This document shows positions 56,866 through 57,900 of a stretch of DNA of 64,000 nt, one piece after another. Source of the stretch: Escherichia coli (lineage in GTDB: Bacteria > Pseudomonadota > Gammaproteobacteria > Enterobacterales > Enterobacteriaceae); assembly GCF_041248615.1 (NCBI RefSeq), contig NZ_CP158426.1; one strand, given 5' to 3'. Numbering within the stretch: the first letter of the stretch is position 1; the number at the start of each line of letters is the position of its first letter. The notes under the pieces are model-generated. The model did no database searches. It was not told the origin of the DNA and saw only the letters and a list, made by a program, of their open reading frames with translations. The translations under genes and the position numbers were made by a program.

Positions 56866-56923
56866 TTCAAAATTCGACGAATTAACGATATTTGTCTGAT
56901 TAATAATCAGACCGGATTAATGT

Positions 56924-56942
56924 TGGTGTATTTATTACACCA
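56924..56942 (+). terminator. weak hairpin downstream of ykgO
   Basis: TGGTGTA-TTTAT-TACACCA followed by T-rich sequence; AT-rich stem. Confidence 0.25.
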
Positions 56943-57900
56943 GCATTAATTTTCCTGAGGATGTATCTTCCTGTTCATTTAAGGTCAACTGCCTGACGTT
57001 TCTCTCCGAATATTCCATTATATTAATGTTGACTTGTTGACCAGGTGCGCCCTGTATGCTGGCATCAACTCTCTTTTAGACTGAACACGCCACTCAGTTT
57101 CCTCCCTTTGCGACGCAGCCTGCATTTACACTCAAACGGTTAAGATGATAAATGTGGTAAATCTGTTGGTACTGACATAAAAACGTTTACGCCACAGGAA
57201 CGGCCTGATCCACCGGTAACCCCATCGCCGACGTTCGAGTGCCAGTTAGAGTAACGCGCACAGATGACTGAATGCAGTGCCCTGGCAAAGAGGCCATCGT
57301 TCCTGTGACAACTGGCAGTCTTCGTTTAACTTCACTTAATTTGGCTCTTAGGGGGCTTACCGGACAGATGACGTACTTACACCTGTTTAATTTTTCATCA
57401 CTTATTGGGATGAACACCCATAACCATTTTGTGCGGCATGTTAATCCATTAAAACACCTTACTGATTGGCAAATCATCTTTAATTATGACTCATGATAGT
57501 TTTATATTCTATTTCTTATCATTTAAACTTGTTTTTTTACTAGTCCATTACACAACACATTAAGACTATTCCTAACACCTCAGGGCAAAGTTCCTGGCTA
57601 ATATAAAATGCAAGTAAGAATTGAACGTTATATTGCCAATAACCTTATGAAACTGAATGTCTTTTTCTTCTTATCAAAAAAGCAATATTTTCATTTTTTG
57701 TAAATATTGACTTAACCATGGAATTCCTTTTCTGTTCACATATTGACACTCATCAGGAAAAAAACATAAATTTAAACCTAATCGAAATAATTAAAACTTA
57801 ATCTCGTTTAACCTATATTGATATGTGCTACGTATCTTATTTACTTCCGATTTACTAAAGAAACTGAATGTACCTGTAAAAATTACAGGTTTGGAAAGTA

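Follow-up and report, generated by a model that had tools for sequence, protein, structure and literature searches.

We analysed the intergenic gap between ykgO and ecpR in a 64-kb window of Escherichia coli DNA, the window being the whole stretch of 64,000 nucleotides under study. This gap (56866-57900, 1035 bp) starts directly after the ykgO stop codon, which ends at 56865, and stops one base short of GTG 57901, the start of ecpR/matA in K-12. It separates the Zur-regulated ykgMO operon from the ecp (mat) pilus operon, and its two halves, split at ~57424/57425, are unrelated. The right half is very probably the known regulatory module of the ecp operon, which is inherited together with it. 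A sequence-only reading of the window had proposed an H-NS- and IHF-controlled ecp promoter in the gap. That proposal holds for 57425-57948, where published control of the operon, a pair of TTCCT boxes, an RcsAB-type box and a conserved promoter come together, and does not extend to the left half, which contains a probable ykgMO terminator, an apparently decayed ykgL and a spacer. The strong AT bias described in the same reading was confirmed, with a guanine-plus-cytosine (GC) content of 36.5% against 49.6% for the window and values as low in 1.2% of 1035-nt windows, though the bias is uneven along the gap. GC content was 40% in 56866-57125, 46% in 57126-57424 (with 200-nt windows of up to 51%) and 28% in 57425-57900, the lowest-GC stretch within the 64 kb.

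A study by Martinez-Santos in 2012 reportedly names regulation by EcpR, IHF and H-NS in its title, and is said to describe two TTCCT boxes, 'distantly located upstream' of the promoter, as the EcpR binding sites. According to another article, EcpR activates the ecp operon together with IHF (PMC10038029); the same article, citing Martinez-Santos 2012, places the ecp promoter 121 bp before the annotated start codon of ecpR. MatA/EcpR acts as a heterodimer with RcsB, without need for phosphorylation of RcsB, and auxiliary regulator genes are repressed by H-NS (PMC5651002; PMC7917084). Derepression of ecpA, and likewise of the regulatory genes of the tested pilins, has been observed in an hns mutant of Klebsiella pneumoniae (PMC4746245).

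To locate the corresponding elements, ecpR loci of 11 taxa (from E. coli, divergent Escherichia, Enterobacter mori, six Klebsiella species and Pantoea) were aligned over 560 nt upstream of the conserved ecpR ATG, and conservation was scored by column. An objective scan of this alignment returned conserved blocks at 57560-57577 (TTAAGACTA/TCCTAACA), 57588-57596 (AAGTTCCTG), 57636-57653 (CCAATAACC/TATGAAAC), 57741-57752 (TATTGACACTCA), 57926-57939 (GGGACTATGAGGTT) and 57946-57953 (CATATGGA). These correspond exactly to an RcsAB-type box, the second TTCCT box, a central block, the -35 region, the Shine-Dalgarno (SD) sequence and the ATG of ecpR. The module at ~57425-57948 combines a GC content of 28% with cross-genus homology.

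The RcsAB-type box TAAGACTATTCCTA (57561-57574, plus strand) agrees in 13 of its 14 positions with the RcsA-RcsB box consensus TaAGaatatTCctA given in PMC3950696, and is the sole zero-mismatch match to TAAGANNNNTCCTA in 64 kb. The pattern T.AGA..A.TC.TA was kept in all 11 taxa, and the box was among the best conserved blocks; it is probably the site bound by EcpR(MatA)-RcsB. It overlaps the first box of TTCCT-N17-TTCCT (57569-57595, plus strand; -211 to -185 from the predicted transcription start site, TSS), a pair that occurs once in the window against 0.07 occurrences expected and whose TCCT cores are invariant across taxa. Further downstream, the central block CCAATAACC-T-TATGAAAC (57636-57653, plus strand) reached a column conservation of 0.90-0.92 in the 11 taxa and is a candidate architectural site, perhaps for IHF. 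Scans with the H-NS high-affinity and CRP consensus sequences returned nothing convincing.

The core sigma-70 promoter lies at 57743-57772 on the plus strand, with the -35 hexamer TTGACA at 57743-57748, an 18-bp spacer and the -10 hexamer TAAATT at 57767-57772. It was the top promoter-like site in our scan, with a score of 10/12, and TTGACAC and TAAAT were invariant in the 11 taxa. We infer a TSS at ~57780, which would lie at the published distance of 121 bp before GTG 57901. An alternative promoter, TTAAAA-17-TATATT (57791-57819, with its -10 at 57814-57819), would fit a start 121 bp before the ATG; it was rejected, as it is not conserved outside Escherichia.

These elements suggest how the operon may be controlled. 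H-NS would coat the 28%-GC DNA and silence the promoter. The EcpR/MatA-RcsB heterodimer would then occupy both the RcsAB-type box and the TTCCT pair, some 200 bp ahead of the start site, and the DNA between would be bent by IHF, allowing the distal activator to counter H-NS and aid RNA polymerase. Polymerase would start from TTGACA-N18-TAAATT at ~57780, and the transcript would carry a leader of ~169 nt followed by ecpR as the first gene, so that EcpR would activate its own synthesis. The steps are taken from published work on the locus, except for the IHF bend, which we propose on the strength of the conserved geometry.

Comparison with other genera indicated where the module begins. BLAST similarity to Klebsiella loci set in at 57427 to 57560, varying from one locus to another, with alignments starting at a distal decamer, TTTTGTGCGG, at 57427; the upstream neighbour in Klebsiella is a divergent phnCD operon and not ykgMO. 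We conclude that the ecp operon brings its regulatory DNA along with it and that the gap's left half is a separate piece of DNA. The distance from the RcsAB-type box to the -35 hexamer (57561-57748 here) was 182 bp in 10 of the 11 taxa and 183 bp in Pantoea, while the sequence between them drifted, with compensating indels and a mean column conservation of 0.66. Constant spacing despite such drift argues for a fixed protein-DNA architecture, and would fit a looped, phase-dependent geometry of activator and promoter. As a separate observation, a second ecp operon, diverged from the first, lies just downstream of it in some Klebsiella, after its ecpD/ecpE, with an ecpR copy that is 57-61% identical; K. 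oxytoca L011 has an RcsAB-type box of its own, TAAGAAAATTCCTA.

The decamer itself (57427-57436, plus strand; ~-353 to -344 from the predicted TSS) was identical in nine loci, from Escherichia, five Klebsiella species and Enterobacter mori, and unique in each. Relative to the ATG its position is -518 to -524, and wherever it is present it stands 133-134 bp upstream of the RcsAB-like box. It is missing from K. indica and Pantoea, and its flanks do not align between genera. A variable feature is a run of A residues in the promoter spacer (57749-57766), which we followed within E. coli in five sampled genomes besides the earlier loci. This sequence, O157 and three more of the sampled strains have A7 and hence an 18-bp spacer, and K-12 and two others have A8 (19-bp spacer); in Klebsiella, Enterobacter and Pantoea the spacer is 17 bp. 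Even strains of a single allele class differ in the length of the run, which points to slippage. We consider it conceivable, but on balance doubtful, that TTTTGTGCGG is an extra operator, that the array is helically locked in a nucleoprotein loop needing a third protein contact, and that the A-run is a heritable tuner of pilus expression. If this were true, A-run length might explain the poor expression of the operon in some lineages, including K-12.

A number of points weigh against reading the right half as the ecp module. In this strain, the TSS, the occupancy by H-NS and the binding of IHF and of EcpR/RcsB are deduced from the sequence and from studies of other strains, and the two TTCCT boxes are taken as EcpR binding sites on the description reportedly given by Martinez-Santos in 2012. 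The region contains no exact match to the IHF consensus WATCAANNNNTTR; the best match (one mismatch, 57683-57695, minus strand), which is the sole such match in 57400-57960, is poorly conserved. Neither the central block nor TTTTGTGCGG could be assigned to a factor, and a promoter scan of 56400-58600 gave 6 sites where 7.1 were expected, and thus no excess.

The AT-rich half could also be merely a generic 'promoter island', that is, horizontally acquired and H-NS-silenced DNA with abortive promoter-like sites and without specific architecture. The K-12 orthologue is indeed one of 78 listed promoter islands and adjoins predicted foreign genes, and the island ecpR/ykgL (310529_398) is marked 'A', as H-NS-bound in all ChIP-chip (chromatin immunoprecipitation on microarrays) studies compiled (PMC3661553, Table 1); its position in the lowest-GC stretch of the window is of a piece with this. 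However, discrete blocks have been kept across four genera while the intervening sequence drifted, the spacing is fixed both from box to -35 (182 bp) and from decamer to box (133-134 bp), a single invariant -35/-10 pair stands at the published TSS distance, and the simple scan found no surplus of promoter-like sites. We therefore regard a generic island as a quite improbable account of this DNA. The island presumably projects approximately to 57533-57930, assuming U00096.2 numbering and a shift of +778 to NC_000913.3. Membership in the islands and the role of an ecp regulatory module are compatible and not exclusive, and the ecp module is the description that we prefer.

The conserved blocks at its right edge bear on the start of ecpR, which is most likely ATG 57949 (180 amino acids, as annotated by the Prokaryotic Genome Annotation Pipeline, PGAP) and not GTG 57901 (196 amino acids, as in the K-12 annotation). 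The SD region GGACTATGAGG (57927-57937) and ATG 57949 were invariant in the 11 taxa. In divergent Escherichia, GTA stands in place of GTG 57901 and an in-frame TAG comes after it; in Klebsiella, an in-frame TAA directly precedes the ATG. Since the conserved start appears to be ATG 57949, the non-coding stretch would truly end at 57948, and the predicted ecpR leader would occupy 57780-57948 on the plus strand. Consensus folding of this leader in nine taxa gave essentially no shared structure, and the single-sequence fold was weak (z = -1.9).

The surroundings of the gap were established from the list of open reading frames (ORFs) and from annotation. To the left lie ykgR (56002-56103), ykgM (56459-56725) and ykgO (56722-56865), and to the right ecpR/matA, ecpA, ecpB and ecpC in that order, all on the plus strand. 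The segment 56700-58000 (1301 bases) is identical to the chromosome of strain E300010, whose annotation lists ykgM, ykgO, ykgL (as a pseudogene), ecpR, ecpA, ecpB and ecpC. Over the same segment, identity was 99% to UTI89, 98.6-99% to O157/UTI89-type strains and 93.9% to K-12. The region was found in 5071 of 5426 complete E. coli genomes, nearly always in single copy. About 350 genomes are without it, and some matches retain only the ecpR edge (H30, for example, with 7% coverage); 13 of the 5112 matching places of this chromosomal region fall on plasmid-typed records. Further to the left, the window stops matching K-12 at ~55450. An alpha/beta hydrolase and an NADH-dependent flavin oxidoreductase (~53295-55530) stand there in place of the K-12 ykgP/eaeH. 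PGAP flags a frameshift in the oxidoreductase of E300010, yet its 380-amino-acid ORF (54388-55530) is open here.

The left half begins with a cluster of three plus-strand hairpins at the 3' end of ykgMO. Hairpin 1 (56860-56887) spans the ykgO stop codon, hairpin 2 (56894-56912) is a perfect 19-nt palindrome, GTCTGATTAATAATCAGAC, and hairpin 3 (56914-56952) has a 17-bp stem followed by UUUU. The minimum free energy of 56860-56952 was -38.1 kcal/mol, compared to -17.2 for shuffled sequences (z = -6.7 on the plus and -6.0 on the minus strand). All three helices were retained in four Escherichia sequences, and the U-run of hairpin 3 was lost in the divergent one. Hairpin 3 is probably the ykgMO terminator; a simple terminator scan made no call on it because its stem is AT-rich and its U-run only UUUU. 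The palindrome GTCTGATTAATAATCAGAC, placed after the ykgO stop codon and ahead of the main terminator stem, may be a mere hairpin or a protein site.

Between the ykgL remnant and the module lies the spacer (57126-57424), which hosts a 96-amino-acid ORF on the minus strand and a 74-amino-acid ORF on the plus strand. It aligned to the divergent Escherichia locus at 73% identity and not to Klebsiella, and the RNA fold of this middle segment was no better than that of shuffled sequences on either strand (z = -1.0 and -0.6). Nested inverted repeats of 10-11 nt at 57193-57363 were considered and rejected, as their number is that expected by chance in 1.2 kb, the fold test was negative, and substitutions in K-12 disrupt the pairing and do not compensate for it. 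A gene remnant or mobile element was likewise set aside: Pfam and NCBIfam returned nothing, only E. coli hypothetical proteins were matched, and the 1301-bp region is single copy. The segment appears to behave as a neutrally evolving, Escherichia-specific spacer in which function was not detected.

The sequence-only reading had seen a long gap with only short ORFs lacking an SD sequence, and this is what we found. The longest ORFs encode 96 (minus strand, 57187-57477) and 74 amino acids (plus strand, 57272-57496), and none of the eight ORFs of at least 30 amino acids has a GGAG, GAGG, AGGA or AAGG core within 20 nt upstream. When the whole gap was simulated, an ORF of 96 amino acids was reached in 9% of composition-matched random sequences. 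The annotated ORF in the gap is ykgL (b0295), the remnant of which was placed at 56900-57125 on the minus strand by public annotation and alignment to K-12. It encodes 75 amino acids in K-12; in this alignment, two 1-bp deletions leave an ORF of 35 amino acids here (57018-57125), and the annotation of E300010, identical over 56700-58000, labels it frameshifted. Its length varies: K-12-type alleles encode 75 amino acids, O157 63, the present sequence 35 and one further strain 11. In divergent Escherichia, its N-terminal half is replaced by unrelated sequence. Identity to K-12 was 92-95% over ykgL and 98-100% over the flanking genes, so that the divergence of ykgL (5-8%) resembles that of the rest of the intergenic DNA. 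Among 5.8 billion proteins searched, named homologues of ykgL came from Escherichia only (42-103 amino acids; unnamed metagenome matches aside), and neither Pfam nor NCBIfam matched a family for ykgL or for the 96- and 74-amino-acid ORFs. In a protein search, the 96-amino-acid ORF matched nothing but 'hypothetical proteins' of E. coli, 59-126 amino acids long, and both this ORF and the 74-amino-acid one are cut in two in K-12 by a 1-bp indel. By these comparisons, ykgL appears to be a decayed, lineage-restricted ORF and not a conserved gene.

Could the gap nevertheless encode a real small protein, either YkgL or one of the ORFs of 74-96 amino acids? The K-12 annotation of ykgL, the use of its name by PGAP in many genomes and its intact state in four sampled K-12-type alleles (75 amino acids in three, and an annotated coding sequence of 77 in the fourth) speak for it, as does the length of the 96-amino-acid ORF, which is somewhat above chance in the 355-nt middle segment (p ~0.02). 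Set against these are the two frameshifts in ykgL here, its variable length and unrelated N-terminus elsewhere, its restriction to Escherichia among named homologues, a divergence equal to that of the surrounding non-coding DNA, the absence of an SD sequence before every ORF and the splitting of both other ORFs in K-12. We consider a real small protein highly improbable. No translated, conserved protein-coding gene thus came to light in the gap, ykgL being broken and variable in length and the other two ORFs being split in K-12. Small RNAs (sRNAs), which the sequence-only reading had said such regions sometimes hold, found no support either: outside the terminator hairpins there was no significant or conserved fold, the K-12 annotation of the interval lists no sRNA, and a permissive Rfam scan of 55500-59000 returned only folP over the terminator hairpins (E = 0.43; 20.8 bits against a gathering threshold of 99), which is noise.

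A functional non-coding RNA might still take the form of an antisense transcript from the ykgL strand on the 3' end of ykgMO (an excludon), of an sRNA derived from the 3' untranslated region through the hairpins, or of a regulatory ecpR leader. Convergent excludons listed as seen in at least 50% of MG1655 RNA-sequencing samples include the pair ykgL-ykgO (PMC12288877), and some ykgL-strand transcription therefore extends into the hairpin cluster, which is highly stable on both strands. In addition, Hfq represses matA/ecpR expression in enteropathogenic E. coli (PMC8550237), which would be in keeping with an sRNA acting on the 169-nt leader, and post-transcriptional control of this leader is possible. 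However, transcript overlap does not by itself show function, the scan found no promoter-like site on the ykgL strand in 57126-57300, Rfam gave no family match, the interval has no annotated sRNA in K-12, and neither the fold of the middle segment nor a conserved structure in the leader stood out. A functional non-coding RNA is thus improbable in our estimate. An antisense sRNA candidate described earlier, ECS017 (~92 nt, with a northern band of ~275 nt), lies opposite the Zur-regulated ykgM promoter at ~56400-56460, outside the gap (PMC3175480).

The E. coli common pilus serves as an adhesin that is widespread in E. coli, both commensal and pathogenic, and in Klebsiella, and the ecp control region decides when cells leave motility for adhesion. 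The region is already known as an H-NS-silenced fimbrial promoter that has been experimentally dissected before, and little is gained here for gene discovery. What the analysis offers is a set of modest leads for specialists, namely the cross-genus footprint, the rigid spacing, the distal decamer TTTTGTGCGG and the A-run polymorphism, together with two corrections of annotation, the ATG start of ecpR and the removal of ykgL from the conserved genes.

Compared with the E. coli PecpR/PmatA region described by Martinez-Santos (2012), Lehti (2012 and 2013) and Pannen (2016), the DNA analysed here has the same locus, gene order, TTCCT boxes, RcsAB-type box, 121-bp promoter and AT-rich H-NS target DNA. 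It differs from the K-12 ecp region in carrying an O157/UTI89-type allele and a promoter spacer of 18 bp in place of 19, and nothing else differs in kind. Its K-12 orthologue figures among the promoter islands of the Ozoline group, is bound by H-NS and has its place beside predicted foreign genes; unlike a silent island, the region has one conserved and experimentally used promoter. The islands are defined by a very high PlatProm density of promoter-like start points across 300 bp or more, and in the simple consensus scan such sites were no more frequent than expected (6, with 7.1 expected). The bgl and leuO promoters, which respond to BglJ-RcsB, likewise combine an RcsA-RcsB-like box with an activator that opposes repression by H-NS. 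The usual place of an RcsB site is immediately upstream of the -35 hexamer (PMC5651002). In the ecp region, by contrast with bgl and leuO, the box stands ~200 bp upstream of the start, at a distance that is fixed across genera, and the gene of the activator is the first in its own operon.

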